A stretch of DNA of 64,000 nucleotides, taken from contig JAJTHM010000012.1 in the NCBI GenBank assembly GCA_021297855.1, forward strand, positions 57,591 to 121,590. Reading direction: 5' to 3'. How positions within the stretch are numbered: position 1 is the first letter of the stretch; each line of letters starts with the position of its first letter. The notes under the pieces were generated by a model. It was given only the letters and a program-made list of their open reading frames with translations, made no database searches and had not been told where the DNA came from. A program made the translations under genes and the position numbers. The stretch is from Sphingobacteriales bacterium (lineage in GTDB: Bacteria; Bacteroidota; Bacteroidia; Chitinophagales; JADJOU01). Shown in pieces: positions 34,514-50,781 of the stretch.

Positions 34514-35407
34514 ATGAAGCGATTTGCACTAATAGGAGCTGCGGGCTATATAGCTCCTCGACATATGAAAGCTATTAAAGATACGGGAAATACCTTGGTC
34601 TGTGCGTTCGATCCATACGATGGGGTCGGTATTATGGACAGCCATTTTCCTGATGCTGATTTTTTCACGGAATTTGAGCGCTTTGATCGTCACATCGATA
34701 AGTTGCGAAGACAAGGAAACCCTATTGATATTATCAGTATTTGTAGTCCTAATTATCTCCATGATGCACATATTCGATTTGCTCTAAAAAGTGGGTGCGA
34801 TGTGATCTGCGAGAAACCACTGGTTCTAAATCCCTGGAATGTGGATGCAATCGTAGATATTGAAAAGGAAACGGGAAAGAACGCTTATACTATACTTCAG
34901 CTGAGGTTACATCCGAATATTAAAGCATTAAAGGAACGAATTGATAAATCACCAGCAGGTAAAATCTATGATATAGATCTTAAATATATCACTTCTAGAG
35001 GTAAATGGTATCATCACAGTTGGAAAGGCGATATCGATAAATCAGGTGGAATAGCAACCAATATAGGGGTTCATTTTTTTGACATGCTCACATGGATATT
35101 TGGAGATATCGTTGAGAATAAGGTTCATAGACATGATGATGATACAGCCGCAGGTTTTCTTCATTTAGAAAAAGCACGTATCAATTGGTTTTTGAGTATC
35201 GATTACCATCAAATACCAGAAGAAGTAAGATTTGCGGGGAAGCGAACTTATCGCACGCTGAGCATGGAAGGGGAGGAGATTGAATTTTCAGATGGATTTA
35301 CAGAATTACACACGGATAGCTACCGTGAGATATTAGCAGGAAGAGGATTTCCTGTAGCGGTTTCAAAAAAAGCTATAGAAATAGTGCATGGCATTAGACC
35401 GGAATAA
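34514..35407 (+). CDS. Gfo/Idh/MocA oxidoreductase, WbpB/WlbA-like (UDP-GlcNAcA 3-dehydrogenase type)
   Basis: MKRFALIGAAGYIAPRHMKAIKDTGN... closely resembles the WbpB N-terminus as I recall it. EKP motif CEKPLVLN. Confidence 0.75.
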   Translation: MKRFALIGAAGYIAPRHMKAIKDTGNTLVCAFDPYDGVGIMDSHFPDADFFTEFERFDRHIDKLRRQGNPIDIISICSPNYLHDAHIRFALKSGCDVICEKPLVLNPWNVDAIVDIEKETGKNAYTILQLRLHPNIKALKERIDKSPAGKIYDIDLKYITSRGKWYHHSWKGDIDKSGGIATNIGVHFFDMLTWIFGDIVENKVHRHDDDTAAGFLHLEKARINWFLSIDYHQIPEEVRFAGKRTYRTLSMEGEEIEFSDGFTELHTDSYREILAGRGFPVAVSKKAIEIVHGIRPE

Positions 35408-36728
35408 AATTACAGTCGCTAGGCTACTTAAATTCTCGTACTGTTTATTATTTGCGTTTCCTGCGCTTCCAAATGCTTTACAGAGTATCGTATTCGGCTT
35501 ATTTTTAGCCATTTGTTTAGTATATTTTTATCAGAATAAGCAAGTTTCTTTTTTTGAAAGTAAAAACTACGCCGCCTTATTCTTCCTTTCTGCCTATTAT
35601 ATTTTTTTTCTAGGCACTTATTTTTATCCAACGAACTATCATTTTTCAGCGGAGTATATTCAACCAAGCATTCTTTTGCTCTTATGCCCACTAGTTTTGC
35701 TTTTTACTAGTTGGATTCAAGATAAGAAGATGAATAAGTTAGCAGTATGGGTGCTTACTATAAGCTCCTTGTGGTCTTTTTATTTGCTTTATGAATATTG
35801 GGTAGAAGGTATAGCCTTATCGTATAAATATTATAGGAGTGATGTTGATTTTACGGATTATACTCATATACCCGACTGGAAGTATATACTTAAGAGTTCT
35901 ACTGAGTTTCTAAACAGTCTTGCTGAATGGGGATTCTATAGAGAGGGAATAAAAATAGAACTCAACACGCATCATACGTTTCTATCCGCTGTATATACTT
36001 TTAATGTTGTTTTGATATTAGCTAATATCAATAATAAGACACGTTCTTACGAAAAAATAGTGTTCTTAATAGTATGTATAGGTCTTTCTTTTATTATCTA
36101 TTTCTTAGAGTCTAAGGCGAATATTATATGTCTCTTGGTCATATTAGTAAGCAGCTTGTTTTACTATTTATATCAATACTTATCTCAAACCTTTCGTTAT
36201 ATTTTTGGAACCATACTGCTTGCAATTGTATTTACTGGTTTTTATTACCTAAACAAAAATAAAAATGAATTTATCCATCAGATTGAGTCGAGAAAGCTGA
36301 TAGAACCAGCGCGCAAAAAGCTGTATAGTTTACTCTATAATGAAGTCAAACAAAAGCCAATTCTTGGCTATGGTGCCAATAATGTGAAACCTCTATTGGA
36401 TAGTGTGGTGAAGAAAGATTCTAGTAACTATTTTTTTAGGTTCAATGTCCCAACGTATTATCAGAGTCCACATTCTCAGGTTTTATTTAGCATGTTATCA
36501 GGAGGGTCTGTTCAGCTAGGTTTATTTTTGATTATGTTTGCCTTCTTAGTATTAGTTTTTATAAGTAAAGGTAATATTTTTGGGCTGCACCTATTGCTTA
36601 TTGTGGGGGTGAATTGTGTTTTCGATGACTTTTTGAATAGGGCATGGGGAGTTTATCTTTTCCTATTAGGGATTATTTATTTTTGGAATGACTTTGTTAA
36701 AAACAAGAATGAAATCAACCTTCTATAA
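35388..36728 (+). CDS. O-antigen ligase / Wzy_C-domain family polytopic membrane protein (ligase, polymerase or O-oligosaccharyltransferase)
   Basis: 446 aa with about 10 TM helices and a large loop before the last helices (...GYGANNVKP...PHSQVLFSMLSGG), typical of the Wzy_C family. Confidence 0.6.
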   Translation: MALDRNKITVARLLKFSYCLLFAFPALPNALQSIVFGLFLAICLVYFYQNKQVSFFESKNYAALFFLSAYYIFFLGTYFYPTNYHFSAEYIQPSILLLLCPLVLLFTSWIQDKKMNKLAVWVLTISSLWSFYLLYEYWVEGIALSYKYYRSDVDFTDYTHIPDWKYILKSSTEFLNSLAEWGFYREGIKIELNTHHTFLSAVYTFNVVLILANINNKTRSYEKIVFLIVCIGLSFIIYFLESKANIICLLVILVSSLFYYLYQYLSQTFRYIFGTILLAIVFTGFYYLNKNKNEFIHQIESRKLIEPARKKLYSLLYNEVKQKPILGYGANNVKPLLDSVVKKDSSNYFFRFNVPTYYQSPHSQVLFSMLSGGSVQLGLFLIMFAFLVLVFISKGNIFGLHLLLIVGVNCVFDDFLNRAWGVYLFLLGIIYFWNDFVKNKNEINLL

Positions 36729-37938
36729 AAACTTTTTGATTCTATTCTCAGGCACCACGCTATCTCAGATAATCCCATTTGCTGCTGCATTTTTTATTGC
36801 TAGAATTTATACCAACGAAGAGTTTGGCTTTTATGGATTATTTATCACGCTGGCAGGTATTCTGTCGGTCGTCGCCACTTTAAAATATGAGGTAGCACTC
36901 TTGGTAGCTGACTCTGAAGATAAGGCTCTTCATATCATGCAGACAGTTTTGCTTCTTGCTACTATAGTTGCTTTGCTACTATTTGTAGGGATAGGTATTT
37001 TGTTTCTATTAGATATGGTTTCTATAGCTTATTTCTTATTGCCATTTTCTGTTTTTGCTATAGCTATTTACACCTCTATAGATAGATATTACAATAGATT
37101 TAGTCATTACAAATCGATGTCTATTCTGAGAATTAACAAATCTACTGGTGAGTCTATTTATAATATTCTAGGGAGTTTAAGTTGGTTGCGGCCCTTGAAT
37201 TTAATCATAGGATTCACTGGAGGTTATTTATTGGGGATAGGTTACTTTTTATTCTCGCAATTTCAGTTTTGTAAGTTGGTTTTAACTAGTTTTTCTCTCC
37301 GAAATGTTCAAAGCATCATCAAAGAATATAAAGACTTTGCTTTGTATTCCTTTCCTCTCGCCTTGTTAAATACTGTATCCACTAGTATCCCCGTTTTATT
37401 AATTCCTTACTACTACGATGAGTCTAGCCTAGGTTTGTTTATATTTGGATCTAAATATGTGCAAGCGCCCCTGAGTCTTATTTCAGGATCCATTTACAGC
37501 GTATTTGGCCAAGAGTTGAAAGATTGTATGGCAGATCGAGCTGCCCGAATTCAGATTTTTAATAGCCTAACAAAAAAATTGGTTTTACTGGCTATTTTAA
37601 TGACCCCATTTTTGGCATTTGCGCCATTTTTCTTCACCTTCTTTTTTGGGGAGAACTGGACGACTTCAGGTAAGTATATTCAAATTTTGACCTTATGGAT
37701 AGTGGTCAATTTTGTGATGTCTGCATTGGCGAATATTCCGGTGTTATTCCAAAAGCAGCGTCAAGCGTTGATATTGGAAATCGTCTATTCTTTTGCCAAG
37801 TTATTGCCTTTTGTTATTTTCGCAGGCTTCTTTAAGTACAACTTGAATGAGGTTCTTATAATCTATGCAATTTTAACTACATTTGTCTTGTTCTATAGCT
37901 TTTATTGGAATAGAAAATTGATATATGGTAACCAGTAA
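36709..37938 (+). CDS. wzx: oligosaccharide flippase (Wzx / polysaccharide biosynthesis protein family)
   Basis: About 12 TM helices. N-terminus MKSTFYKNFLILFSGTTLSQIIPF is typical of Wzx/MOP flippases. The track ORF starts at 36688, inside the previous gene. Confidence 0.75.
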   Translation: MKSTFYKNFLILFSGTTLSQIIPFAAAFFIARIYTNEEFGFYGLFITLAGILSVVATLKYEVALLVADSEDKALHIMQTVLLLATIVALLLFVGIGILFLLDMVSIAYFLLPFSVFAIAIYTSIDRYYNRFSHYKSMSILRINKSTGESIYNILGSLSWLRPLNLIIGFTGGYLLGIGYFLFSQFQFCKLVLTSFSLRNVQSIIKEYKDFALYSFPLALLNTVSTSIPVLLIPYYYDESSLGLFIFGSKYVQAPLSLISGSIYSVFGQELKDCMADRAARIQIFNSLTKKLVLLAILMTPFLAFAPFFFTFFFGENWTTSGKYIQILTLWIVVNFVMSALANIPVLFQKQRQALILEIVYSFAKLLPFVIFAGFFKYNLNEVLIIYAILTTFVLFYSFYWNRKLIYGNQ

Positions 37939-39025
37939 TGCACAATCTGAAGATCAGAGGATAAATGTCACAAAGACATTTCTGCCATCTATAGATAGCT
38001 ATGCTAGCATTCTCCAACGCGCATGGGATAATGTATGGCTAACTAATCGTGGTGAATTAATACTTGAACTTGAAGAAAAATTAAAGGAAATTCTCGGAAT
38101 GGACAATATTCTGATTATGAATAATGGTACCATACCCATCCAAATAGCATTGAAGCTCTTGGGTAATCATGGTGAAATTATTACGACGCCATTCAGCTAC
38201 GTGGCTACCTCTTCGGCTATTATTTGGGAGAACTGTAAACCTGTGTTTGTAGATATAGAAGGCGATGGTTGGACTCTAGACCCACAGAAATTAGAGGAGG
38301 CGATTACTCCGAATACAACATGTATCTTAGCTACCCATGTTTTTGGTAATCCATGCGATGTTGAAAATATAGATAGAATTGCTCAAAAGCATAATTTGAA
38401 GGTTATCTATGACGCAGCACATTGCTTTGGCGTGAAGTATAAAGGTAAGAGTGTTTTTAGCTATGGTGATGTCAGTACATGTAGTTTTCATGCTACTAAA
38501 ATATTTCATACAGGAGAAGGAGGGGCTTCGTTTTGCAATGATTCAGAATTGCGAAAAAAAATATATTATAGCCATAATTTTGGACACAATGGTCCTTTAG
38601 ATTTTCATGGTTTGGGTATCAATGGTAAGATAAGTGAACTACAAGCAGCAATGGGTCTAGCCGTTTTGCCTCATATGAAGGATATCTATAGCGAGAGAAA
38701 ACGCGCTGTTGAATTCTATAATGCTCATATTGATTTCAATCGCTATACCAGATTAAAGATAAGAGATAATACAGAATGGAATTATAGCTATTATCCTATA
38801 TTGTTTAAAACTGAAACTGCGCTGCTTGACGCTCAAGAAATGTTTAATGCAAAATCTATATTCCCTAGGCGTTATTTTTATCCTTCCTTAAATGCTATTC
38901 CATATATAAATGGGCAAGCCATGCCTGTATCAGAAGATATTGCGTCTAGGGTTCTATGCCTTCCACTCTATGCTGGTATAGCGGAAAAAGAGTTGAATCG
39001 CATCGTCCATATTCTAAATCAATAG
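37925..39025 (+). CDS. DegT/DnrJ/EryC1/StrS family sugar aminotransferase (PglE/WbpE/WecE-like)
   Basis: PLP-lysine context DVSTCSFHATKIFHTGEGG, ELQAAMGL, and a C-terminal LCLPLY. Confidence 0.88.
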   Translation: MVTSNAQSEDQRINVTKTFLPSIDSYASILQRAWDNVWLTNRGELILELEEKLKEILGMDNILIMNNGTIPIQIALKLLGNHGEIITTPFSYVATSSAIIWENCKPVFVDIEGDGWTLDPQKLEEAITPNTTCILATHVFGNPCDVENIDRIAQKHNLKVIYDAAHCFGVKYKGKSVFSYGDVSTCSFHATKIFHTGEGGASFCNDSELRKKIYYSHNFGHNGPLDFHGLGINGKISELQAAMGLAVLPHMKDIYSERKRAVEFYNAHIDFNRYTRLKIRDNTEWNYSYYPILFKTETALLDAQEMFNAKSIFPRRYFYPSLNAIPYINGQAMPVSEDIASRVLCLPLYAGIAEKELNRIVHILNQ

Positions 39026-39028
39026 GGG

Positions 39029-39652
39029 ATGCTAGTTATAGGTGCTAGAGGTTTTGCTAAAGAAGTATTAGGCGTTTTGGATCAGCTAGATACGCTGAGC
39101 AATTTATTTTTCTTTGATAATATTAATACAGAGGACGAATTGTTGTTTAATCAGTTTAAAATTCTACACAGTTTTGCTGAGGTGGAAGAACTTTTTAGAA
39201 AAGATAGTAGATATACTTTAGGGATTGGCAATCCTAATCTAAGATTTAGGTTATATAACGAATTTCAAAAGTATAAAGGAGAAATCACCTCTACCATTAG
39301 CCCCTATGCCAAAATAGCCAAATACGATGTGCATATTGGCAGTGGAGTAAATATAATAACAGGTGCGACTATTGATTGCAGTGTGCAGATAGGAGAAGGC
39401 TGTCTTTTAAATACATCTTGTGTTATAGGTCATGATTCTATTCTTGAGGACTTTGTTGAAGTTTGTCCTGGAGCAGTTATCTCAGGCGGATGTTATATTG
39501 GTACACAATCTTTTATTGGCACCAATGCTACCATCCTACCTCAGGTGAGAATAGGAAACAATTGTACAGTCGCTGCTGGTGCTGTCGTGACGAGAGATGT
39601 TCCAGATAATACCAAAGTATTTGGAGTTCCAGCTATCCCAAAAATAAACTAG
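39029..39652 (+). CDS. NeuD/PglD-family sugar N-acetyltransferase (left-handed beta-helix)
   Basis: N-terminal Rossmann-like MLVIGARGFAKEVLGVL followed by hexapeptide repeats IGSGVNIITGATIDCSVQIGEGCLLNTSCVIGHDS... Confidence 0.82.
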   Translation: MLVIGARGFAKEVLGVLDQLDTLSNLFFFDNINTEDELLFNQFKILHSFAEVEELFRKDSRYTLGIGNPNLRFRLYNEFQKYKGEITSTISPYAKIAKYDVHIGSGVNIITGATIDCSVQIGEGCLLNTSCVIGHDSILEDFVEVCPGAVISGGCYIGTQSFIGTNATILPQVRIGNNCTVAAGAVVTRDVPDNTKVFGVPAIPKIN

Positions 39653-39659
39653 TCTAAGA

Positions 39660-40733
39660 ATGATAATCCATATAATGCCTGATGCAAATTATAGTGTAAA
39701 CTTTATGGATTACATCAATGAGCATTGCGGTAAAAAAGACCATCTTTATATTGCCATTGTTCAAAAATCAAGTTATTACTTTGACTATTACAAGCATATT
39801 GATAATTGCATCGTAATTCAGAATAAGTATGACTATTTTAAATATTTACCTGAGTATCGAAAAGCGGAAAGATTAATTATCCATCAGTTAAATAGACCAG
39901 AGCTAATGTTTTATTGGTTGTTTTTCGATAGGAGTATATTTAATAAGTTAGTTTGGGTCATTTGGGGCTCTGATGTATATGACTATCTATACCAGAGTAG
40001 ATCTTTTAAAGCTAGAATACTTGAATGGTTAAGAAAAAATTTTATAGCTAGAGTAAAGTATATTGCAGCCTATATCTATGAAGATTATCTCCATTGTAAG
40101 AAGATATACCCTTCAAATTCCAAGTATTTTAAGGTCTTATACCCAGGAATTATAGATGTGAAGAATCTGAGAGAGATAGCTTACAGAAAAAAACATGTGG
40201 ATGATAAAGTAAAAATCGTCATTGGAAATTCTGCAGATCCGAGTAATGATCATATAGCTATCTTAGATTATTTGGAAAAATTCAAAAGTGAAAACATACA
40301 ATTGTATCTTATACTTTCTTATGGTGGTACTCGAGAATATATTGATAATGTGAAGGTGAAAGCTAATTCAATTTTTGGAGATAAGGCTATTTTCATGCAA
40401 GAACTCATGACTGAACCTGACTTCTATAGTTTTCTAGATGATACGGATATTGGTATTTTTAATCATAAGCGACAACAAGGTTTAGGAGCTTTGATTCATC
40501 TGGTCTATGCAGGAAAGAAAATGTTTGTGAATTCTAGTAGTAGTACATATACCTACTACAATAGAATAGGAATCAAGATGTATCCGACCGACCAAATACC
40601 AGCTAATGACTATGGTGAATTCATCGCCTTCGACAGAATACAAGGAGAGAAGAATAGAGATGGTATTCTGAGTGAGTTGAATGAGGTGGATAATTTGACT
40701 CAGTGGAAGGCTGTCATTTATGATTCACTTTGA
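39660..40733 (+). CDS. WecF-like glycosyltransferase (GT56, TDP-Fuc4NAc:lipid II transferase family)
   Basis: 357 aa. MIIHIMPDANYSVNF..., VIGNSADPSNDHIAILDYLEKF and LSYGG resemble WecF (GNSGDRSN.H...). Moderate recall-based call. Confidence 0.55.
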   Translation: MIIHIMPDANYSVNFMDYINEHCGKKDHLYIAIVQKSSYYFDYYKHIDNCIVIQNKYDYFKYLPEYRKAERLIIHQLNRPELMFYWLFFDRSIFNKLVWVIWGSDVYDYLYQSRSFKARILEWLRKNFIARVKYIAAYIYEDYLHCKKIYPSNSKYFKVLYPGIIDVKNLREIAYRKKHVDDKVKIVIGNSADPSNDHIAILDYLEKFKSENIQLYLILSYGGTREYIDNVKVKANSIFGDKAIFMQELMTEPDFYSFLDDTDIGIFNHKRQQGLGALIHLVYAGKKMFVNSSSSTYTYYNRIGIKMYPTDQIPANDYGEFIAFDRIQGEKNRDGILSELNEVDNLTQWKAVIYDSL

Positions 40734-40779
40734 TTTGAAGCCTATCGATGTGTTTAGGGCTTTTTAAATATATTTGTAA

Positions 40780-42186
40780 ATGCTAAAGATTTGGATACAT
40801 ACATTTATTTTGTTCTTGGGAGTCATATTGTCTTGGACCTTATCAGATGAACCACTTCAAGCCCTTGGTATTTTCCTGCTTTTATTTTCCATTATTTCGA
40901 GTTTCACACTCAATAAGAATAGAATACTCCTTGAGCCAATAAATTTTTTTAGTTTATTCTCTCTTACAATCGTTTTAGTAGAATTTTACTTTTATCATTA
41001 TGGTTTCCTGAGAAGCAAATTTATCCTAGCTACTACCTTTTCTCAAGATATAGATTACTTATTTACAAAAGCTATCTATCTGATTCTACTTGGATATCTA
41101 TGTGTGTGCTTTTCGTATTTTCTATTTAGAAGGAACATTCATTATGAGATACAACCGATTACCTCAATTAATCAAAGAGGATTGAAGTATTCCATTTGGA
41201 TATTTGGTATTTTATCCGTTTTGAATTTCATCTACATTGTATATCATTTTGCAGGAGGTAATTTAATGGCTTATATGCAGAATGTATCTGTAAGAGAATA
41301 TGAATATATGAGTGGTGGGGTTACTGGTATCTTCCTAGATTTTGGAATTTTTGCCCTCTTTTATTGGATATATTATAATTATCGATATAAGCAAAAATTT
41401 AGCTATTACTTTTTCATTTTTTTAGCCTATGTCATGCTGATGAAATACTCTCAAGGTAGAATTTTTCAAACTATAGGCACTTTGATTGCTATATATATTG
41501 TAACTTACTTTATCTACTTTATACACTCAAAAGGTATTATTATAAAGCAGTTGTTGGGTATTGTAGTACTTGGATTGGTGTCATTAATTCTTTATGCTTA
41601 TAGATTGAGAAGCTCTCTTATATTCAATAGTATGGCGGAGACGGACTTTTTAGATCAGCTGACTCAATTTTTCCAATTTGAGGAATTATCTTTTTATTTG
41701 ATAGAGAAAGGAAATGTTCCCAATATCCCAGTATTTATGAAAATAATAGATTCTTGGGCTGCAGATGTTGGGTATCTCTATGGAGAATCTATATTGTATC
41801 CATTTTATAGATTTCTGCCGAGTGCCATCAGTCCAGAGAATATCTCTGTATCGAATATTGTAAAAAAGGAGTGGTATGTTAATATAGAAGGGGGAGCTCT
41901 GCCTCCTACATGTTTCGGAGAAATGTTTGCCAACGGCAATATATTAGGTTTAATCTTGGGTATGTTGCTCTTTGGGGTATTTATGGCAGTTGTTTACAAC
42001 CTCTTACAACGTTATCGAAATATTGTTTATTTGGTCATTTATGCTATGATAGTATCCTCCTTTTTCTTTATTTATCCTAAGGGAGAGTCTGATAATCTCA
42101 ATTTAATCAGCATTTTTATTTTCTTAGTCACTTATGTATTTATATTAGTATTTTCGTCCCTGTTTTACAGGCAGCCAAGGAAGTAA
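40780..42186 (+). CDS. wzy: oligosaccharide repeat-unit polymerase (Wzy-like) membrane protein
   Basis: 468 aa with more than 10 TM helices, very AT-rich and low conservation, and in the typical locus position. Confidence 0.6.
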   Translation: MLKIWIHTFILFLGVILSWTLSDEPLQALGIFLLLFSIISSFTLNKNRILLEPINFFSLFSLTIVLVEFYFYHYGFLRSKFILATTFSQDIDYLFTKAIYLILLGYLCVCFSYFLFRRNIHYEIQPITSINQRGLKYSIWIFGILSVLNFIYIVYHFAGGNLMAYMQNVSVREYEYMSGGVTGIFLDFGIFALFYWIYYNYRYKQKFSYYFFIFLAYVMLMKYSQGRIFQTIGTLIAIYIVTYFIYFIHSKGIIIKQLLGIVVLGLVSLILYAYRLRSSLIFNSMAETDFLDQLTQFFQFEELSFYLIEKGNVPNIPVFMKIIDSWAADVGYLYGESILYPFYRFLPSAISPENISVSNIVKKEWYVNIEGGALPPTCFGEMFANGNILGLILGMLLFGVFMAVVYNLLQRYRNIVYLVIYAMIVSSFFFIYPKGESDNLNLISIFIFLVTYVFILVFSSLFYRQPRK

Positions 42187-42224: not shown

Positions 42225-43361
42225 ATGGCATACCAAGTATGTACCCGATGTGTGATGGATACCACAGATCCAGAAATTGTGTTTAATTCACAAGGGGTTT
42301 GCAATCATTGTATTAAGTTTGATGAGATAACATCTAAAAATTGGTTCCCAACTAAAGAAGGAGAGCAGAAGTTAGCAGCTATTTATGCTAGTATGAAGCA
42401 TGAAAATAGGAACAAAGACTACGATTGTATTCTGGGGCTTAGTGGAGGGGTTGATAGTTCATATTTGGCCTTGAAACTTTTTGATGCTGGAATTCGTCCT
42501 CTAGTGGTGCACGTTGACGGTGGGTGGAATAGTGAGTTAGCTGTACAAAATATTGAGAATATTGTGAATTATTGTGGCTGGCATTTGCATACGATAGTCA
42601 TTGATTGGGAAGAAATGCGCGATTTACAACTAGCCTATATGAAGTCGGGAATTGCCAATCAAGATGTGCCACAGGATCATGCTTTTTTTGCTTCATTATA
42701 CCATTTCGCTACTAAATTTAATATAAATAATGTAATCGGCGGAGGTAATATAGCTACGGAGTGTATTTTCCCAGATGCTTGGCATTGGAGTGCTATGGAT
42801 GCGGAAAATTTGCATGCGATTCATAAAAAATTTGGAAAAATTAAATTGAAAAAATTTAAAACAATTGGCTTTTGGGATTTGTATTTTTATTATCCTTTTA
42901 TCAAAAAAATGAAGACCTTGAGACCACTCAATTATATGCAGTATATTAAATCGGAAGCATTGATTGAGTTGAAGGAAAGAATAGGATATAAGGAATATGC
43001 GAAGAAGCATGGAGAATCTGTATTTACTAAGTTCTTCCAGAATTATTATCTCCCGATGAAATATAATTTCGATAAAAGACGACCACACCTTTCTAGTATG
43101 ATAGTGACAGGCCAATTGACGAGAGAAGATGCTTTAAAAGATTTGGAAAAGCCTCTCTATGATGAGAAGGAATTAGTTTTCGATAAAGAATACATCGCTA
43201 AAAAGCTTGGAGTCTCGAATGCTGAATTTGAAGAGATATTAAACGCACCACCGCATAGCTATAAAGATTTTAATAATATGGAGTCGAAGTACCTTTTCGT
43301 AAAAAAAGTTCAAAATTTCGTTTCTAACCTATTAGGCAGGAAAATCACCAACTATTCTTAA
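42225..43361 (+). CDS. wbpG: N-acetyl sugar amidotransferase (WbpG/PseA family, TIGR03573-like)
   Basis: Zn-ribbon CTRCVMDTTDPEIVFNSQGVCNHC, PP-loop LGLSGGVDSSY, length 378 aa. Confidence 0.85.
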   Translation: MAYQVCTRCVMDTTDPEIVFNSQGVCNHCIKFDEITSKNWFPTKEGEQKLAAIYASMKHENRNKDYDCILGLSGGVDSSYLALKLFDAGIRPLVVHVDGGWNSELAVQNIENIVNYCGWHLHTIVIDWEEMRDLQLAYMKSGIANQDVPQDHAFFASLYHFATKFNINNVIGGGNIATECIFPDAWHWSAMDAENLHAIHKKFGKIKLKKFKTIGFWDLYFYYPFIKKMKTLRPLNYMQYIKSEALIELKERIGYKEYAKKHGESVFTKFFQNYYLPMKYNFDKRRPHLSSMIVTGQLTREDALKDLEKPLYDEKELVFDKEYIAKKLGVSNAEFEEILNAPPHSYKDFNNMESKYLFVKKVQNFVSNLLGRKITNYS

Positions 43362-43372
43362 TTAGTGCATTC

Positions 43373-43981
43373 ATGATAGCCATCCTAGATTATGGAGTAG
43401 GAAATGTAAAATCTATTTCCAATATGTTTAAAAAAATTGGAGTGGAGTCTGTGATTACTTCGGATGAGGAAATTTTAAATTCTGCCTCTAAATATATTCT
43501 ACCAGGAGTAGGTGCTTTTGATTATGGTATGAATCAATTAAAACGTTCTGGAGTTCTTCCTGCATTGGAGAGAGAAGTACTACAAAATAAAAAGCCTATT
43601 TTAGGTATTTGTCTTGGGATGCAGTTATTGACCAATAGAAGCGATGAAGGCATAGAGAATGGCCTTGGCTGGATAGATGCCGAGACCTTGAAATTCAAAC
43701 TAGATACGAATGTTTATCCTATACCCCACATGGGTTGGAACGAAATTCATGCGAAGTCAGATGAAAAATTATTTGTCGACCTACATCAAGAAGCGAGGTT
43801 TTATTTTGTTCACTCCTATTTTGTATCTTGCGCGAAAGAAGAGAATGTAGCAGCTACATGCCATTATGGAGGAAATTTCACGTGTTCTATTCATCGAGAA
43901 AATATTTACGGGGTTCAATTTCACCCAGAAAAAAGTCATAAGTTTGGTATGCGATTATTGAAAAATTTTAGCGAATTGTAA
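43373..43981 (+). CDS. hisH: imidazole glycerol phosphate synthase HisH-like glutamine amidotransferase (LPS-locus paralogue)
   Basis: Class-I GATase with GICLGMQLL (Cys nucleophile) and VQFHPEKS. Confidence 0.85.
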   Translation: MIAILDYGVGNVKSISNMFKKIGVESVITSDEEILNSASKYILPGVGAFDYGMNQLKRSGVLPALEREVLQNKKPILGICLGMQLLTNRSDEGIENGLGWIDAETLKFKLDTNVYPIPHMGWNEIHAKSDEKLFVDLHQEARFYFVHSYFVSCAKEENVAATCHYGGNFTCSIHRENIYGVQFHPEKSHKFGMRLLKNFSEL

Positions 43982-44745
43982 TGTTACAGAAGCGCGTTAT
44001 TCCTTGTTTACTGCTCCACAAAGGAGGACTATATAAAACGGTAAAGTTTAAGAATCCAACCTATATTGGTGATCCAATCAATGCGATTAAGATATTCAAT
44101 GAAAAGGAAGTAGATGAGTTGATGTTTTTAGATATCGATGCTTCCGCTTCCAATAAAGAACCAAACTTTACGCTCATTGAAGATATAGCAAGTGAATGCT
44201 TTATGCCACTGTGTTATGGTGGTGGTGTTAAAACCATAGAGCAGATGAAGCGTATTTATTCTCTCGGGGTTGAAAAAGTATCGTTGAGCGCCAGTGCAGT
44301 ATTGCTTCCCCACCTGATCGAAGAGGCGGCCTCAAGATTTGGAAGGCAGAGTGTCATCGTCACAATAGATGTCAAAAAAGAACTGTTTGGTTCCAAGAAG
44401 GTATATATACACAATGGAAAGACGAATACTAAAATAGGCGTTTTGGATTTTGTAAAAAAAATGGAAGAATGCGGTGCGGGGGAGTTGGTTATTAATTCTA
44501 TAGATAGAGATGGCGCGATGAATGGCTTCGATTTAGAATTGCTATCGGAGATAAAATCGAATACCGCGATTCCAATTATAGCGCTTGGCGGTGCAGGGAA
44601 TATCAATCATATTGCCGAGGTTTTTGAAAAGTGCAAACTAGATGCTGTAGCCTGTGGCAGCATGTTTGTATACCAAGGCCCTTTGAAAGGCGTTTTGATT
44701 AGTTATCCTAAACAAGCTGAAATTATAAGGTTAAACCAATTGTGA
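43981..44745 (+). CDS. hisF: HisF-like cyclase/ammonia-channel subunit (LPS-locus paralogue)
   Basis: RVIPCLLLHKGGLYKTVKF, GGGV, SIDRDGAMNGFDLEL, ALGGAG. Start overlaps the hisH stop. Confidence 0.85.
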   Translation: MLQKRVIPCLLLHKGGLYKTVKFKNPTYIGDPINAIKIFNEKEVDELMFLDIDASASNKEPNFTLIEDIASECFMPLCYGGGVKTIEQMKRIYSLGVEKVSLSASAVLLPHLIEEAASRFGRQSVIVTIDVKKELFGSKKVYIHNGKTNTKIGVLDFVKKMEECGAGELVINSIDRDGAMNGFDLELLSEIKSNTAIPIIALGGAGNINHIAEVFEKCKLDAVACGSMFVYQGPLKGVLISYPKQAEIIRLNQL

Positions 44746-44748
44746 GGC

Positions 44749-45492
44749 ATGAAAAACATTGAAAATTGGAGACCTTCTAAGTTTAAAGTTGTTGCGAATG
44801 AACTTTATCCAAATATAAATAAAGAAAACCCATCTCACGGTTCTTGGTTAGGTATGAAAAGGGTGTGTGAGCATTATAATTTATATTCAAGGACTTATAT
44901 TAAAGGAAAATTAATAGATCTGGGTTGTGGGGAAGTTCCATTTTATCATTTTTATGAAAACCTTGTATCTGAAATTACTACAATAGATTGGGGCAATTCA
45001 GATGCAAGAGTCAATTTTGTTGATTATGAAATGGATTTGAATAAAAGTCTTGACTTGGCCTCAAATAATTACGATACCATCCTTCTTGCTGACGTATTGG
45101 AGCATATTCGGCATCCTACGGTTTTGATACAAGAAATGAGCAGAATACTAAAGCCCGGAGGTCAAGTTGTAATAAATCTACCTTTTATGTACTGCATACA
45201 TGATGCTCCTTATGACTATTTTAGATACACAAACTACAGCCTAAAGTCAATGTTTGAGGACCATGGCTTTGAAGTTAAAGAGATGCATGCAACAGGAGGC
45301 AGTATGGATATCATAACCGATTTAGTGGCTAAAATTATATGCGCAATACCCTTTCTTGGCAATATTATGAGTCTTTATTACCAAAAACTACTTTGGCTTT
45401 TAGTGAAAGTTCCACCGCTAAAACAGATCAATCAAAAAACAAAAACTGCTTGTCCATTTGGTTATTTCGGTGTCTTTAGGAAAAAAATGTGA
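44749..45492 (+). CDS. class I SAM-dependent methyltransferase
   Basis: Motif I LIDLGCGEVP, and post-I/II ILLADVLEHIRHP...LKPGGQVVIN. Confidence 0.8.
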   Translation: MKNIENWRPSKFKVVANELYPNINKENPSHGSWLGMKRVCEHYNLYSRTYIKGKLIDLGCGEVPFYHFYENLVSEITTIDWGNSDARVNFVDYEMDLNKSLDLASNNYDTILLADVLEHIRHPTVLIQEMSRILKPGGQVVINLPFMYCIHDAPYDYFRYTNYSLKSMFEDHGFEVKEMHATGGSMDIITDLVAKIICAIPFLGNIMSLYYQKLLWLLVKVPPLKQINQKTKTACPFGYFGVFRKKM

Positions 45493-46613
45493 TAGGCGCT
45501 ATGAACAATCCCGTTAGAGTTACTCACCTCACTTCAGCACACGATCGATATGATATACGTATTTTCGTAAAAATGTGCTGCTCACTAGCCAAGAATACCA
45601 ATTTTCAGGTTAGTTTGATCGTAGCAGATGGATTAGGTGACGAAGTCATAAATGGAATAAGTATTTATGATGTAGGCAAAAGTAGTAACAGATTCGCTAG
45701 AATATTTGACACATCAAGGAGGGTTGTCGAGAGAGCAATTAAGTTGAATGCAGATATTTATCATTTTCATGATCCTGAATTATTACTTTGGGCAAAGCGT
45801 CTTAAAAAAAATGGGGCAAAAATTATTTATGATGTTCATGAAGATTTGCCGCGCCAATTGCTTTCAAAACCTTATCTCAATCCTTTAGTGCTTAAATTTT
45901 TAGCTAAATTTATTGAAGTTTTTGAAAATTGGGTAGTTAAGAAATGTGATGTAATTATAACTGTAACTCCATTTATTAAGTCGAGATTTTCAGTTTTTCA
46001 TAAGAATGTTTTTATTGTTGCAAATTTTCCGTTGTTGCATGAATTTAAAACAGAAAAATTATCTAAGGAAAATTATGTATGCTATGTAGGTGGCCTCACA
46101 AAAACGCGAGGAGTTTTTGAAATGATTGAATTGGCGAAACACATAAATATCCCATTAAAATTAGCAGGCCCTATTGAAAGTGATGAAGTTTTAAACACCA
46201 TTAATCAATCATCTAATGTTGAATACCTTGGCGTGTTGGGTCGAGAGGAAGTTACTCGATTAGTTTCTAAAGCTAGCGTTGGTCTTTGTATACTTCATCC
46301 AATACCTAATTATAAAGTGGCATATCCAATTAAGGTTTTTGAATATATGGCTGCCCGAACTCCAGTTGTTGCTTCCGATTTTCCATTGTATGCCGAAATC
46401 GTTGAAGGAAATAATTGTGGTTTATGTGTAAACCCATTTGATGTCCCACTAATAGTTCAATCTATCAATTCAATTCTTCAAAGTGATAAGTATGGCGAAG
46501 AATTGGGAGAAAATGGATTAAAGGCTATTTTAAAAAAATATAACTGGACAGAGGAAGAAAATAAACTATTTGAAGTTTATTATAATCTTACAGCTAAAAT
46601 CCAGTTAAACTGA
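45489..46613 (+). CDS. glycosyltransferase family 4 (GT-B)
   Basis: C-terminal EX7E region: PIKVFEYMAARTPVVASDFPLYAEIVEG. The start could be the internal ATG at 45501. Confidence 0.82.
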   Translation: MIGAMNNPVRVTHLTSAHDRYDIRIFVKMCCSLAKNTNFQVSLIVADGLGDEVINGISIYDVGKSSNRFARIFDTSRRVVERAIKLNADIYHFHDPELLLWAKRLKKNGAKIIYDVHEDLPRQLLSKPYLNPLVLKFLAKFIEVFENWVVKKCDVIITVTPFIKSRFSVFHKNVFIVANFPLLHEFKTEKLSKENYVCYVGGLTKTRGVFEMIELAKHINIPLKLAGPIESDEVLNTINQSSNVEYLGVLGREEVTRLVSKASVGLCILHPIPNYKVAYPIKVFEYMAARTPVVASDFPLYAEIVEGNNCGLCVNPFDVPLIVQSINSILQSDKYGEELGENGLKAILKKYNWTEEENKLFEVYYNLTAKIQLN

Positions 46614-46617
46614 ATTA

Positions 46618-47676
46618 ATGAAACCTTACTGCCCTTTTCAGAATGTTTTCAAAAATTTAAAATTAGATTCTAAATTACTTAGACAAATTTTATTTTACAT
46701 TACTATTGTTTCATCTTATAGCTCTTTTTCTCAGAGTAAAAGTGACTTCAAAAGTCTTGATTCATTAATATTACGACTTAATAACCACTCCAAAAAAACA
46801 GAAACTGGCAATGAAACGGTTCAGTACTATGCTGCAATGTTTTATACCAATGCGACGATTTATGGCTATAATTCAAAAGAGGCGAAGCATTACTTGATTA
46901 AGTGTGAAGCAAAAATAGACAGCTTTGGATATGGGTTGGGCTTTGCTTGGGATGCATTTCAAGATGGCACGATAAATGATAAAACGACCAACTATTCCAT
47001 TACGATTACAGAACACATGCTTCCATTGATATACGGATATGAGAACAAAGTGGTTCATAAGAGACGTATCCTCCATATGATAGATGCATTCAAGAAGTTC
47101 CCTTTAGCCGATACCATGAAACAAGGAGATTGTATTGCCTATTCCGATCATGCAAATGATATAGTTGGCTGTGTGCATAATACCAATATTAGTTGTGCTA
47201 AGTTTATAGAAAGGCTAAAGAAGTCCGGACTGGCGGATAAATCATTAAAAAAACTTCAAGAGAGAATTATTCAAAGAGAAATCAACTCCTTTCTGGAAAA
47301 GGATACCAGTTATTATTATTGGGATAAAGACTCTATTCTTTGCGACCAAAATCACCTTTCCAGCACAGCCTTGCAGATGTTTGATATCCCAAATCCAATT
47401 TTGAAGAGAATAGCCTTATTGCTTAATGAGAAAATACATAAACACAAGGAAAAAAATGTCAAGTCCTTGATAGGACAGTGTGCCATACTATCAATTGATG
47501 ATAAACACTATGAAGAAATGTACAAGGTGGTAAATGAATTATTAGATAAAAGATCAGATTATCTAGATTTTGATGATTATAGATTTGATAATCCAATGGT
47601 TAGTGCAAGTATTAATTATTATTTTTGCCTTTTGAGGGAGAAATGGGTCAAAGAAATAAAAAAGCAAAAATTGTAA
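46618..47676 (+). CDS. hypothetical membrane-anchored/exported protein of unknown function within the glycan locus
   Basis: 352 aa with an N-terminal anchor LRQILFYITIVSSYSSFSQ. The predicted helical repeat character (GLGFAWDAFQDG...) gives a weak alpha/alpha-toroid impression only. Confidence 0.5.
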   Translation: MKPYCPFQNVFKNLKLDSKLLRQILFYITIVSSYSSFSQSKSDFKSLDSLILRLNNHSKKTETGNETVQYYAAMFYTNATIYGYNSKEAKHYLIKCEAKIDSFGYGLGFAWDAFQDGTINDKTTNYSITITEHMLPLIYGYENKVVHKRRILHMIDAFKKFPLADTMKQGDCIAYSDHANDIVGCVHNTNISCAKFIERLKKSGLADKSLKKLQERIIQREINSFLEKDTSYYYWDKDSILCDQNHLSSTALQMFDIPNPILKRIALLLNEKIHKHKEKNVKSLIGQCAILSIDDKHYEEMYKVVNELLDKRSDYLDFDDYRFDNPMVSASINYYFCLLREKWVKEIKKQKL

Positions 47677-47733
47677 ATCATTAAACCCCAATATTGTATT
47701 AGTTTTGTCCAAAATTATTAAACTGAAGCAAAT

Positions 47734-49557
47734 ATGTGCGGAATTTTCGGTCAAGTAGCAGCTCAAACCATTCATAAGTCTAACTTTGATAGCCTAGTCA
47801 AACACTCTGAGCAGCGCGGTCAAGACTCTAGTGGATTGATTTATCTCAAGGATGGGAAATATTATATAGAACGAGCAGACTATAATGTAGAAAAATTACT
47901 CAACAAAGTAAAACCTTATCAATCCAAAGTAGCTCTAGGTCATAGCAGATTGATAACAAATGGGTTGGCTGACAATCAGCCCGTAATCAAGGATAATATT
48001 TGTGTCATTCACAATGGCATCATTATTAATGAAAAAGAAGCTTGGTCTAAGATTAAGTCTGAGAGAAAACTCATCATTGATTCTGAACTCATCGTTGCTA
48101 TAGCCTTAGAGCATTTGAATGATGGGGGAGAGATTAAGACGATTCCCGAAAAACTAAATAGTATCTGCAAGGGGGTGATGGCTTGTGCACTGGTTTTGCC
48201 AGCAAAGGGCAAGGTTTTACTCTTTTCCAATAATGGTAGCTTATATTTGGGTAGGATAGGAGAAGACATATACTTCGCATCTGAGTCTTATGCCCTGCAC
48301 CAGATTGGCTGCAGTGAGGTAAATCAAATCAAAGATGAACCTGTTTTAATAGATATCCCTGTCTCCGACCAGCCATTTAATTTGGTCGATAATAAGACCA
48401 GAGTAGAGAACCTAATACCTGAATTCAAGTTCAATCAGGCTGAAGAAAAGTTATTGGTCTATCCAAAATTAAACTTAAAACGCTGCACCAAATGCATTCT
48501 TCCAGAGACTATGCCTTACATTAAGTTTGATGATAAAGGTGTTTGTAATTATTGCAACAATTATAGACCAAGAAACAATCCAAAGCCAAAAGAAGAACTT
48601 TTCAAATTAGTAGAGCCTTACAGGAGAAAAGAGGGTATAGACTGCATTGTCCCTTTTTCTGGGGGTAGAGACAGCTGCTATGGGTTGCATTTGGTCGTGA
48701 AGGAGCTGGGCATGAAGCCTATAACCTATACCTACGATTGGGGAATGGTCACAGATTTAGGAAGGAGAAATATTAGTCACTTTTGCGCCGAATTAGGCAT
48801 AGAGAATATAATTGTCGCGGCAGATATTTCTCAAAAACGAAAAAATATTGCTATGAATCTCAAAGCGTGGATGAAATCACCACATTTAGGAATGGTCAGT
48901 ATTTTTACAGCAGGTGATAAGCATTTTTTCAGATATGTAGAAACGATTAAAAAGCAAACGGGTGTAAACCTAAACCTTTGGGGAGTCAATCCTCTTGAGG
49001 TTACGCATTTTAAATCTGGATTTTTAGGAGTGAAACCCGATTTCGAAGAGGAAAAGGTATACAGCCACGGCGTCATGAAGCAATTGAGATATCATTATCT
49101 TAGATTCAAGGCTATGACAGAGAGTTTGGGTTATTTCAATTCATCGCTTTGGGATACGCTCTCTGGCGAATACTACCGAAGCTTTACAGAAAAGAAGGAC
49201 TACTATCATATTTTTGATTACTGGCGATGGGATGAGAAAATAGTAGATGATACCTTAGCTACCTATAATTGGGAAAAGGCTATTGATACTAATACTACAT
49301 GGAGAATTGGCGATGGTACGGCTGCGTTTTATAATTATATTTATAATACAGTAGCCGGATTTACTGAGCATGATACTTTCCGAAGTAATCAAATTCGCGA
49401 GGGACAAATGACAAGAGAAGAAGCATTGAGACTGGTAGAAGATGAAAATCGACCGCGCTATCAGAATATTCGATGGTATTTGGATACGCTTGATATGAAT
49501 TTTGATGAAGTCATTAAGGTGATCAATAAGATACCTAAATTATATAAGGAGAGCTAA
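47734..49557 (+). CDS. fusion protein: class-II (Ntn) glutamine amidotransferase domain + WbpG-like N-acetyl sugar amidotransferase domain
   Basis: The N-terminus MCGIFG (Cys2 nucleophile) with HSRLITNG and HNGII is typical of GATase-2. From about residue 250: Zn-ribbon CTKCILPETMPYIKFDDKGVCNYCNNY and PP-loop VPFSGGRDSCY, parallel to the stand-alone WbpG at 42225. Confidence 0.75.
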   Translation: MCGIFGQVAAQTIHKSNFDSLVKHSEQRGQDSSGLIYLKDGKYYIERADYNVEKLLNKVKPYQSKVALGHSRLITNGLADNQPVIKDNICVIHNGIIINEKEAWSKIKSERKLIIDSELIVAIALEHLNDGGEIKTIPEKLNSICKGVMACALVLPAKGKVLLFSNNGSLYLGRIGEDIYFASESYALHQIGCSEVNQIKDEPVLIDIPVSDQPFNLVDNKTRVENLIPEFKFNQAEEKLLVYPKLNLKRCTKCILPETMPYIKFDDKGVCNYCNNYRPRNNPKPKEELFKLVEPYRRKEGIDCIVPFSGGRDSCYGLHLVVKELGMKPITYTYDWGMVTDLGRRNISHFCAELGIENIIVAADISQKRKNIAMNLKAWMKSPHLGMVSIFTAGDKHFFRYVETIKKQTGVNLNLWGVNPLEVTHFKSGFLGVKPDFEEEKVYSHGVMKQLRYHYLRFKAMTESLGYFNSSLWDTLSGEYYRSFTEKKDYYHIFDYWRWDEKIVDDTLATYNWEKAIDTNTTWRIGDGTAAFYNYIYNTVAGFTEHDTFRSNQIREGQMTREEALRLVEDENRPRYQNIRWYLDTLDMNFDEVIKVINKIPKLYKES

Positions 49558-50781
49558 ATGAATATTTGGTTGATATCAAAGTATGGCACTCCTGCAGGAT
49601 ATGGCACGGGATTGAGATTATTTTATTTAACGAAGGAGTTTGCTAAGTTAGGACATTCCTCTGTACTTATTACATCTGATGCCAATCACTATGGTCCTAA
49701 CTTTCCCAGTACAGATAAGCGATATAATTATGAAACGATAGATGATACTAAGGTCGTTTGGATAAAAACTTTGAAGTATAAAAAGACGGCATCTCCAGGG
49801 AGGATCTTAAGCTGGTTAGATTTCGAATGGAAACTTTTTGCCATGCCGAAAAAAAATCTTGAAAAACCGGATGTAGTTATCGTTTCATCCCTTTCTATTT
49901 TTACGATAGTTTATGGTTATTATTTAAAATGGAAGTATAAGGCTTTTCTGGCATTTGAAATAAGAGATATATGGCCATTGACTATGACAGAAGAGGCCGG
50001 ATTTAAGTGGTATCACCCTATGGTGTTGTTAATCGGTTGGTTTGAAAAATTTGGCTACAAACATGCTGACCTGGTCGTGGGTACCATGCCTAAATTAGGT
50101 GACCATGTCAAGGAAATATTGGGCTATGAGAGACCTTCTCATTGTTGTCCTATAGGATTTAATCCTAATGATTATGTAGAGGATTCTAGTGAAAATCCTT
50201 TTGATAAGGTATTTCCTGTAGGTAAAAAGATCATTGGTTATGCCGGTAGTATGGGCATTACGAATGCTTTGGAATCCTTCATCGAATGCATAGACATACT
50301 GGACAAGGAGAATTCGAATCTACATTTTATGATTGTAGGAAGTGGAGATTTAAAAGCAGGTTTTGAAAAGAAATTATCATCATGTACAAATGTGACTTTC
50401 CTGCCTAGAATTAAGCAGTCAGAGGTCAAACAGTTCCTGGCTAAGTGCGATATATTATTTCTATCTACCAAGGATAGTAAGGTATGGGACTATGGCCAGT
50501 CGATGAATAAAGTAGTAGAATATATGTTGGCAGCTAAACCTATTCTGGCTAGATATTCAGGATATCCTTCCATGATTAATGAAGCGAAATGTGGCATCTT
50601 CGTCAATTCAAATAGTGTGGAAGATATGAAAAATGCTATTTTGAAACTAACCAATTTAAGTGATCAGGAGCTCAAAGATTTGGGATTGAAAGGTAGAAAG
50701 TGGATTTATGAGAATAGGACTTATAGTAAATTAGCTGCCGATTATTTAGCGAAGATAATTCAATTGAAGTCCTCTCAATAA
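49558..50781 (+). CDS. glycosyltransferase family 4 (WbuB-like)
   Basis: MNIWLISKYGTPAGYGTGLRLFYLTKEFAKLGH... is a typical WbuB-type N-terminus. C-terminal GT-B motifs. Confidence 0.8.
   Translation: MNIWLISKYGTPAGYGTGLRLFYLTKEFAKLGHSSVLITSDANHYGPNFPSTDKRYNYETIDDTKVVWIKTLKYKKTASPGRILSWLDFEWKLFAMPKKNLEKPDVVIVSSLSIFTIVYGYYLKWKYKAFLAFEIRDIWPLTMTEEAGFKWYHPMVLLIGWFEKFGYKHADLVVGTMPKLGDHVKEILGYERPSHCCPIGFNPNDYVEDSSENPFDKVFPVGKKIIGYAGSMGITNALESFIECIDILDKENSNLHFMIVGSGDLKAGFEKKLSSCTNVTFLPRIKQSEVKQFLAKCDILFLSTKDSKVWDYGQSMNKVVEYMLAAKPILARYSGYPSMINEAKCGIFVNSNSVEDMKNAILKLTNLSDQELKDLGLKGRKWIYENRTYSKLAADYLAKIIQLKSSQ

Follow-up and report, generated by a model that had tools for sequence, protein, structure and literature searches.

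Enzymes of the N-acetyl sugar amidotransferase (NASAT) family, among them WbpG (Pseudomonas aeruginosa O5), WbuX (Escherichia coli O145), LfnA, PseA/PtmG (Campylobacter) and AglX (Methanococcus maripaludis), are defined by a tetracysteine zinc motif (CxxC-Xn-[GN]xCxxC) and a SGGxDS PP-loop, and are proposed to ligate ammonia onto an N-acetyl group, generating an acetamidino group while ATP is cleaved to AMP and pyrophosphate (PMC10607449). The same 2023 paper, which reports the structure 8WEX, describes the structure and function of NASATs as little known. These enzymes use separate HisH and HisF paralogues: co-immunoprecipitation validated an interaction between HisF2 and WbpG, and delivery of ammonia to WbpG by HisH2/HisF2 is cited as a proposal (PMC11445079), a mode of delivery backed so far by gene context and that single co-immunoprecipitation. 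Here we describe a 64,000-nucleotide stretch of DNA from a Chitinophagales/Sphingobacteriales bacterium known from metagenome-assembled genomes (the window; assembly GCA_021297855.1, contig JAJTHM010000012.1, positions 57,591 to 121,590 of the forward strand), in which a NASAT system of this kind is accompanied by a second protein, the fusion, whose class II glutaminase is, in contrast, covalently attached to a NASAT-like synthetase. We propose that the fusion is probably a self-sufficient amidotransferase that requires glutamine and ATP, with an N-acetylated amino-uronic nucleotide sugar of the Wbp pathway as its substrate, and, as part of the same likely reading, that a single Wzx/Wzy-type surface-polysaccharide cluster (about 31 to 52.3 kb of the window) encodes two independent glutamine-dependent sugar amidation systems.

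Seven co-directional open reading frames, all on the plus strand, occupy positions 42225-49557. Four of them make up the two systems:

42225..43361, plus strand, stand-alone NASAT of the WbuX/WbpG/AglX type, a zinc ribbon and PP-loop ATP pyrophosphatase (TIGR03573)
43373..43981, plus strand, HisH paralogue, a class I glutaminase of the WbuY/AglY type (TIGR01855, Pfam GATase)
43981..44745, plus strand, HisF paralogue of the WbuZ/AglZ/HisF2 type, presumed ammonia conduit to the NASAT (NF038364, TIGR03572)
47734..49557, plus strand, the fusion, 607 amino acids

An earlier note on this DNA had recognized in the first of these a WbpG-type enzyme followed immediately by HisH- and HisF-like genes, and family models bear this out. 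The 378-residue stand-alone protein scores 309 bits on TIGR03573, the WbuX model, over positions 2-343 of its 344 (curated NCBIfam cutoff, 203.2 bits), and CTRC...GVCNHC and LSGGVDSS, with its SGGVDS PP-loop, can be read in its translation. The HisH paralogue matches TIGR01855 with 244 bits and Pfam GATase with E = 5e-25 and retains the GICLGMQ nucleophile motif and HPEKS, while the HisF paralogue exceeds the cutoffs of both NF038364 (AglZ/HisF2; 378.5 bits, cutoff 310) and TIGR03572 (WbuZ; 307.9 bits, cutoff 299.7). Eleven nucleotides separate the NASAT gene from hisH, which overlaps hisF by one base (spacing -1). Judged by sequence, 42225-43361 thus encodes a bona fide WbuX/WbpG-type NASAT with HisH and HisF2/WbuZ paralogues directly behind it. 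In this first system HisH would hydrolyze glutamine and the HisF paralogue would hand the ammonia on to the stand-alone NASAT, which would activate an N-acetyl carbonyl with ATP at its PP-loop to yield an acetamidino group.

The fusion gene begins 2,989 nucleotides beyond the end of the hisF paralogue, in keeping with the distance of about 3 kb given by the earlier note, and its reading frame is uninterrupted. Its product begins MCGIFG, and the earliest possible start codon yields Met-Cys, as required of an N-terminal nucleophile (Ntn) glutaminase. The protein divides as follows:

47734..48393, plus strand, N-terminal class II (Ntn) glutaminase, residues 1 to about 220 (Pfam GATase_6/GATase_7; GlmS/PurF N-domain models; 1XFF)
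48394..48477, plus strand, interdomain linker, residues about 221-248 (lowest conservation; dip in model confidence)
48478..49557, plus strand, NASAT-like synthetase domain, residues 249-607 (TIGR03573; 8WEX)
48484-48555, plus strand, zinc ribbon C251/C254/C271/C274 (C251-TK-C254...G269-V-C271-NY-C274; each cysteine invariant or at least 90% conserved in the family)
48658-48675, plus strand, PP-loop S309-GGRDS-314 (invariant in alignment A1)

The assignment of the first 220 or so residues to a class II glutaminase holds. Residues 64-189 match both Pfam GATase_6 and GATase_7 above their cutoffs, and the NCBIfam models of GlmS, PurF and AsnB match residues 1-205 with their N-terminal domains. 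The full set of catalytic residues is present: besides Cys2, the fusion's Arg72, Asn94-Gly95 and Asp116 align to Arg73, Asn98-Gly99 and Asp123 of the GlmS glutaminase domain (1XFF), the glutamine-binding and oxyanion residues of that enzyme. Among 140 diverse fusion representatives, 38-68% identical to the window protein, conservation is at least 95% for C2, R28, R72, N94, G95 and D116, for all four cysteines of the zinc ribbon and for SGGRDS, and an MCG start is shared by 127 of them. The glutaminases of the described NASAT systems (WbuY/WbuZ, HisH2/HisF2, AglY/AglZ), represented in the window by the first system, do the job proposed for this domain, the supply of glutamine-derived ammonia to a NASAT-type synthetase, but they employ a class I triad and a separate barrel conduit, are unfused, and are not homologous to it.

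The claim that the remainder of the protein repeats the WbpG architecture stands for its motifs, coverage and fold, but not for its score. Residues 249-592 align to TIGR03573 positions 2-338 of 344 (E = 6e-42) with 144.2 bits, short of the 203.2-bit cutoff. The C-terminal 360 residues are homologous over their full length to the described NASATs, with which they have in common the zinc ribbon, the SGGxDS PP-loop and the setting in glycan clusters, often with Wbp-pathway genes as in the case of WbpG. Among solved structures, the Legionella NASAT 8WEX is closest by sequence to the C-terminal half (E = 4e-13), while the stand-alone WbuX of the window itself is 24% identical end to end (E = 5e-15). 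For an AlphaFold2 model computed from an alignment of 67 sequences, the predicted local distance difference test score (pLDDT) is 92.6 and the predicted template modeling score (pTM) 0.91, and the two domains are therefore taken to have a defined packing; the pLDDT falls to about 70 at residues 221-230 in the linker, the rest of the model being confident. When the model was compared with the Protein Data Bank by Foldseek, the top match was chain B of 8WEX (8wex_B; E = 5e-14, probability 1.0, TM score 0.57 on the target, 372 columns), and the GlmS glutaminase domain 1XFF gave a TM score of 0.70 on the target. The fusion thus has the motifs and fold of a NASAT, while the curated score and the HisH/HisF partners that accompany the family are lacking.

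The fusion is not peculiar to this genome. A large protein collection yielded 7,570 matches at E<=1e-5, the best 120 of which are all 604-620 amino acids long and 73-99% identical, and an exhaustive search of 50%-identity representatives returned 478 proteins at E<=1e-30, the best 150 being nearly all fusions of 600-690 amino acids. From 133 genomic relatives we retained 80 loci whose fusion is 64-78% identical to the window protein over its full length; 46 of them have full 10-kb flanks. They span Bacteroidota, Campylobacterota, Beta- and Gammaproteobacteria, Verrucomicrobiota, Desulfuromonadota and one metagenome-assembled genome (MAG) of Bacillota. Further copies lie on two E. coli chromosomes and on Agrobacterium plasmids. 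The gene occupies O-antigen or capsule loci of Pseudomonas, Campylobacter, Aliarcobacter, Chryseobacterium, Xenorhabdus and E. coli, and the setting is a glycan cluster in every surveyed locus with readable neighbors. According to the earlier note this architecture is not known to have been characterized; full-text searches on NASATs, amidino-sugars, uronamides and AglX/AglZ found no description of it, but an architecture so widespread among phyla is hardly rare. It is genomically common, unnamed and uncharacterized. NCBI names the window protein "hypothetical" and JGI calls it GlmS, and most family members are labeled "hypothetical" or mis-annotated as "glucosamine 6-phosphate synthetase". 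A correct family name would improve the prediction of glycans from genomes and would affect O-antigen and capsule loci in many genera.

Among the 80 loci, hisH/hisF genes are found in 14 of the 17 with a stand-alone NASAT and in 4 of the 63 in which the fusion stands without one (2x2 table 14/3/4/59, Fisher p = 1.2e-9); in other words, 59 of those 63 loci show no hisH within 10 kb. HisH and HisF therefore follow the stand-alone NASAT rather than the fusion, suggesting that the fusion normally works without them. Together with the conservation of the catalytic residues, this upholds the earlier note's Rosetta-stone argument that WbpG-type enzymes need glutamine-derived ammonia, and the fusion provides independent support for glutamine as the nitrogen source in the NASAT-type synthetase lineage. 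The anticorrelation between the fusion and hisH/hisF that the note had proposed to look for does not appear at the level of whole loci. The fusion is found by itself in 41 loci, with an AsnB-type amidotransferase in 20 and with WbuX/HisH/HisF in about 17, and both systems occur together in about 20% of loci, the window included, usually in the order hisH-hisF-(wzy)-wbuX-GT4-fusion-GT4, where GT4 denotes a glycosyltransferase of family 4 (Pseudomonas, Xenorhabdus, Acidovorax, Hamiltonella and others). The recurrence of this layout in several genera indicates that the arrangement in the window is a recurrent, horizontally shared design.

The neighbors of the fusion point to its substrate. WbpB-like oxidoreductases, WbpD-like acetyltransferases and VimE-like UDP-GlcNAc3NAcA deacetylases mark the pathway to UDP-2,3-diacetamido-2,3-dideoxy-uronic acids, and at least one such marker lies in 32 of the 46 full-flank loci. 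A WecB-like 2-epimerase is found in 8 of the 46 and is not universal. Nucleoside diphosphate (NDP)-sugar 6-dehydrogenases lie within 10 kb in 14 of the 46, an absence elsewhere that says little, as several Chryseobacterium copies sit at or just past the flank edge. Directly downstream of the fusion, a glycosyltransferase is a conserved partner:

49558..50781, plus strand, GT4 glycosyltransferase, type GT4b, weakly WcaI/WbuB-like

In the window its ATG follows the fusion TAA without a gap (0 nucleotides). Homologues of GT4b lie inside the fetched flanks of 58 of the 80 loci; at the first position after the fusion, read in 75 loci, the GT4b type (cluster 1) is found in 39 and a GT4-like cluster (cluster 19) in 10 more, 49 of 75 in total. 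Beyond the fusion-GT4 pair the usual genes encode a PglC-like transferase, a PglD-like acetyltransferase, a PglE-like aminotransferase and a PglF-like dehydratase; this set is a module whose product is an initiating sugar of the bacillosamine or QuiNAc type.

The most compact setting of the fusion is found in E. coli, where 2 of 5,426 complete genomes carry it, both from South Korean chicken isolates and both in the galF-gnd O-antigen locus (L081, NZ_CP148493.1 1966788-1996581; NZ_CP148440.1). RefSeq annotation of the cluster lists a Gfo/Idh/MocA oxidoreductase, TviB, an acyltransferase and a DegT aminotransferase, that is, the WbpB, A, D and E enzyme classes, followed by a "lipopolysaccharide biosynthesis protein" that is a flippase candidate (27% identical to the Wzx of the window), an O-antigen polymerase, a GT4, WecB (the WbpI class), the fusion and a second GT4. 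The last of these overlaps the 3' end of the fusion gene by 8 nucleotides, and the GT4b of the window is 43% identical to it. From this gene content it follows that the ManNAc3NAcA/GlcNAc3NAcA route is the sole dedicated sugar pathway of the cluster and the fusion its sole amidotransferase. The wbp cluster of P. aeruginosa PAO1 (O5) comprises wbpA-E, wzy, wzx, hisH2, hisF2, wbpG, wbpH, wbpI and wbpJ; the inventory in E. coli is the same, with the fusion in place of hisH2-hisF2-wbpG. The E. coli cluster would offer an ideal genetic test bed for the fusion; a carrier strain is E. coli Z1323CEC0003, with the fusion protein WP_059274954. No rml genes are present in the cluster. O180 is the one E. 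coli group for which ManNAc3NAcA has been reported, and the O180 structure, coupled with the lack of rml, indicates that the cluster is not O180; its O group is probably rare or as yet unassigned, and none of the published glycan structures could be tied to it. ISAs1 transposase remnants also lie in this cluster. On an Agrobacterium plasmid the order is likewise GT4-WecB-x-fusion-GT4-sugar transferase-acetyltransferase-aminotransferase, with an AsnB in addition.

Glutaminase-synthetase fusions are a classic theme. Class II glutaminases use an N-terminal cysteine and release ammonia into an internal path leading to the fused synthetase, and PP-loop enzymes adenylate an oxygen that is then displaced by ammonia. 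As in the fusion, a glutaminase is coupled to an adenylating PP-loop domain in GuaA (class I, fused) and in glutamine-dependent NAD+ synthetase (nitrilase-type, fused), and the carbonyl that GuaA aminates is, as with the NASATs, of the amide type, but these enzymes differ from the fusion in glutaminase class, in synthetase subfamily and in substrate. We propose a model in which the Cys2 glutaminase of the fusion, packed on the zinc-ribbon/PP-loop synthetase, would generate ammonia from glutamine and pass it within the same polypeptide to a substrate activated with ATP, without recourse to HisH or HisF. The substrate would most likely be UDP-GlcNAc3NAcA, UDP-ManNAc3NAcA or a close relative, and the product would be passed to the GT4 encoded immediately downstream. 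For the group that is formed, an acetamidino group is the leading candidate, with roughly even prospects; a C6 carboxamide is a possible but more doubtful one, and any other product is unlikely. The amidine is favored by the precedent of the NASAT family and by the parallel between the E. coli and PAO1 clusters. Amidino and amide substituents abolish or offset the negative charge of uronic acids, and effects on antigenicity and on recognition by phages and tailocins are therefore to be expected. With a single-chain relative, NASAT chemistry would become far simpler to reconstitute and dissect.

Several observations weigh against this proposal. The activity of every member of the fusion family is a prediction from sequence. 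The score of the C-terminal domain below the curated TIGR03573 cutoff (144 vs 203 bits) marks a divergent subfamily, in which the reaction or the substrate may be altered. No Wbp marker lies within 10 kb in 14 of the 46 full-flank loci. WbuX/HisH/HisF accompany the fusion in about 17 of the 80 loci and AsnB accompanies it in 20, and neither an amidine nor an amide follows from this non-redundancy. Finally, in three Bacteroidota MAG loci and on one short contig hisH-hisF adjoin the fusion while no stand-alone NASAT lies within the fetched flanks:

L030:8523-11824, hisH-hisF beside the fusion
L033:3286-6586, hisH-hisF beside the fusion
L039:10001-14488, hisH-hisF beside the fusion
L004, a short contig, hisH-hisF beside the fusion

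These loci do not fit a simple replacement of HisH and HisF by the fusion; HisH and HisF could sometimes serve the fusion as well. The glutaminase motifs are intact in these copies too, and this may hint at one synthetase domain that accepts ammonia from two unrelated glutaminases.

The alternative that survives best assigns the fusion to uronamide synthesis, with adenylation and then amidation of the C6 carboxylate of a (di)N-acetyl-hexosaminuronic acid (giving, for example, ManNAc3NAcAN or GlcNAc3NAcAN), while the neighboring WbuX/HisH/HisF makes the acetamidino group; the enzyme would then be convergent with the AsnB-type WbpS and WbtH, and one glycan would bear an amide as well as an amidine, in line with the prediction of the earlier note. 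We regard this as possible but tentative. Many PP-loop enzymes adenylate carboxylates, and the C-terminal domain lies far from canonical NASATs (144 vs 309 bits for the stand-alone protein). The fusion would be non-redundant alongside the full WbuX/HisH/HisF sets of the window and of about 17 of the 80 loci, often Wbp-type clusters, and it is this co-occurrence that favors a different reaction such as C6 amidation. A 2,3-diamino-uronamide and an amidino sugar are indeed joined in one glycan of Vibrio vulnificus YJ016, GlcNAc3NAcylAN-GalNAmA-QuiNAc (PMC3210612). Against this, all NASATs whose function has been assigned from genetics and glycan structure are implicated in amidine formation (PMC10607449), and true AsnB-type amidotransferases, at times two per locus and one scoring 384 bits on TIGR01536, are already present in 20 of the 80 loci, which counts against C6 amidation by the fusion. 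The finding of a 6-dehydrogenase in just 14 of the 46 full-flank loci also speaks against it, a point weakened by the flank limit noted above. More broadly, and again with some doubt, the family may do what no characterized NASAT does, either amidating the C6 carboxylate of Wbp uronic acids by a second, non-AsnB uronamide route, or forming an amidine at a site or on a sugar to which no gene has yet been assigned, for example at N2 in a hexosaminuronic acid of the GalNAmA type.

AsnB genes, sometimes two, are clustered with the fusion in L007, L041, L044, L050 and L082 (Agrobacterium plasmid NZ_CP016500.1). In Chryseobacterium the AsnB is accompanied by the GT4 type that elsewhere goes with WbuX/HisH/HisF, and this swap suggests that one residue may be decorated interchangeably with an amidine or an amide.

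Ammonia from its own glutaminase remains the source we favor for the fusion. It is improbable that the glutaminase domain is vestigial or regulatory and that the synthetase half relies on free ammonia or on ammonia from HisH/HisF. The four loci in which hisH-hisF adjoin the fusion with no stand-alone NASAT in view could be read in this way, but Cys2, Arg72, Asn94-Gly95 and Asp116 are at least 95% conserved, the MCG start is kept in 127 of the 140 representatives, the motifs persist even in the hisHF-adjacent copies, and hisH is missing within 10 kb of 59 of the 63 fusions that lack a stand-alone NASAT beside them.

Still less credible is the notion, taken from database names, that the fusion is a primary-metabolism enzyme: GlmS, AsnB or QueC. 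The names themselves and the GlmS-like N-terminal domain speak for it; the glycan-cluster setting of every readable locus does not. Pfam finds no SIS domain, and GlmS models reach residues 1-204 only, at 66-69 bits against cutoffs of 381-418. The AsnB model TIGR01536 (cutoff 267 bits) covers no more than residues 2-206, with a score of 34.7 bits, and the C-terminal half is not an Asn_synthase domain. NF006949, like TIGR01536, is confined to the N-terminal 205 or so residues, and the C-terminal half is WbuX/NASAT by sequence and by the 8WEX fold; the possibility raised in the earlier note, that the protein might prove to be an ordinary AsnB, is thereby answered in the negative. AsnB-type enzymes (WbpS, WbtH, the exosortase-associated amidotransferases; 1CT9) have the same logic as the fusion, an Ntn glutaminase with its cysteine after the initiator methionine followed by a PP-loop ATP pyrophosphatase, and both are found in polysaccharide clusters. 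In contrast with AsnB, which has an Asn_synthase domain and is without a zinc ribbon, the fusion has a zinc ribbon, another synthetase domain and another arrangement of domains. The AsnB structures 1ct9 and 8sue align to the model over some 620-640 columns at a root-mean-square deviation of about 22 A and TM scores of 0.28-0.35, and an AsnB-like domain arrangement was rejected on this superposition. QueC (PF06508) gives no match to the fusion at E <= 0.01 in Pfam or NCBIfam; a sub-threshold 16.7 bits is obtained with the stand-alone WbuX of the window only. The PGAP label "7-cyano-7-deazaguanine synthase" is borne by a 39%-identical fusion on the Solidesulfovibrio plasmid NZ_CP026539.1.

That an assembly or sequencing error joined two genes, the frameshift anticipated in the earlier note, can be dismissed given the uninterrupted reading frame and the full-length homologues of 600-690 amino acids in complete genomes of many phyla, among them E. 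coli chromosomes and Agrobacterium plasmids. A few of the representatives (P0264, P0151) have a NASAT-like domain joined to an LPG_synthase_TM or Sigma54 AAA domain, and may be rare variants or gene-call chimeras.

Between the two amidation systems of the window lie three further genes:

44749..45492, plus strand, class I S-adenosylmethionine-dependent methyltransferase, directly after the hisF paralogue (Pfam Methyltransf_23, Methyltransf_11)
45489..46613, plus strand, GT4 glycosyltransferase of the GT4a2 type (Pfam Glycos_transf_1, Glyco_transf_4; survey cluster 7)
46618..47676, plus strand, 352-amino-acid open reading frame between GT4a2 and the fusion, no family match

The methyltransferase gene overlaps the following GT4 by 4 nucleotides and has a homologue in just 1 of the 80 related loci; by analogy with Leg5AmNMe7Ac of Campylobacter and Legionella, its product might N-methylate the acetimidoyl group. 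In other loci of the survey the GT4a2 type accompanies WbuX/HisH/HisF or AsnB, and the copy in the window is 40% identical to the upstream GT4 of the E. coli cluster. The 352-residue protein has no matches in Pfam or NCBIfam and no homologues in the 80 related loci, and is unrelated to the protein encoded directly after the fusion in Chryseobacterium.

The remainder of the cluster flanks these seven genes:

31093..32973, minus strand, PglF/WbpM-like membrane UDP-GlcNAc 4,6-dehydratase, initiating-sugar precursor (Pfam Polysacc_synt_2, 4e-119)
33190-34491, plus strand, TviB/WbpA-like UDP-HexNAc 6-dehydrogenase (NF011729, 564 bits, just under the cutoff of 592; TIGR03026, 387 bits)
34514-35407, plus strand, GFO/IDH/MocA-family oxidoreductase, WbpB-like by context (Pfam GFO_IDH_MocA)
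35388..42186, plus strand, Wzy_C-like protein, Wzx flippase, DegT aminotransferase, NeuD/VioB-type acetyltransferase, GT56 (WecF-like) and a 468-amino-acid polytopic membrane protein (Wzy candidate)
50806-51705, plus strand, epimerase/reductase of the short-chain dehydrogenase/reductase family
51735-52301, plus strand, PglC-type small polyprenyl-phosphate sugar-phosphate transferase (initiating)

The gene pair at 33190..35407 supplies N-acetyl-hexosaminuronic acid precursors, and homologues of the pair co-occur with the fusion in related loci. Within the WbpA/B/D/E block of the Chryseobacterium loci L006-L019 lies a DAO-family FAD oxidoreductase (for example L007:3364-4551). WbpB reduces 2-oxoglutarate to 2-hydroxyglutarate, and the oxidoreductase might recycle this by-product.

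Upstream of the cluster, a 238-amino-acid open reading frame at 30380-31096 (minus strand) resembles just the N-terminal membrane part of WcaJ/PglF-type proteins and overlaps the start of the PglF-like gene by 4 nucleotides; it is possibly a remnant or a membrane domain that was split. A glutamine-dependent NAD+ synthase with a nitrilase-type glutaminase and a PP-loop domain is encoded at 26811-28457 (NF010588, 644 bits). With HisH and the fusion, the window therefore holds three unrelated types of glutaminase, each serving a PP-loop synthetase. Next to it, at 21767-26803, is a 1,678-amino-acid PorU2-like type IX secretion sortase (NF052324, 640 bits), which fits the Bacteroidota origin of the DNA. 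In Porphyromonas, type IX secretion cargo is reported to be anchored via a sugar of the Wbp/Vim pathway (PMC7468200).

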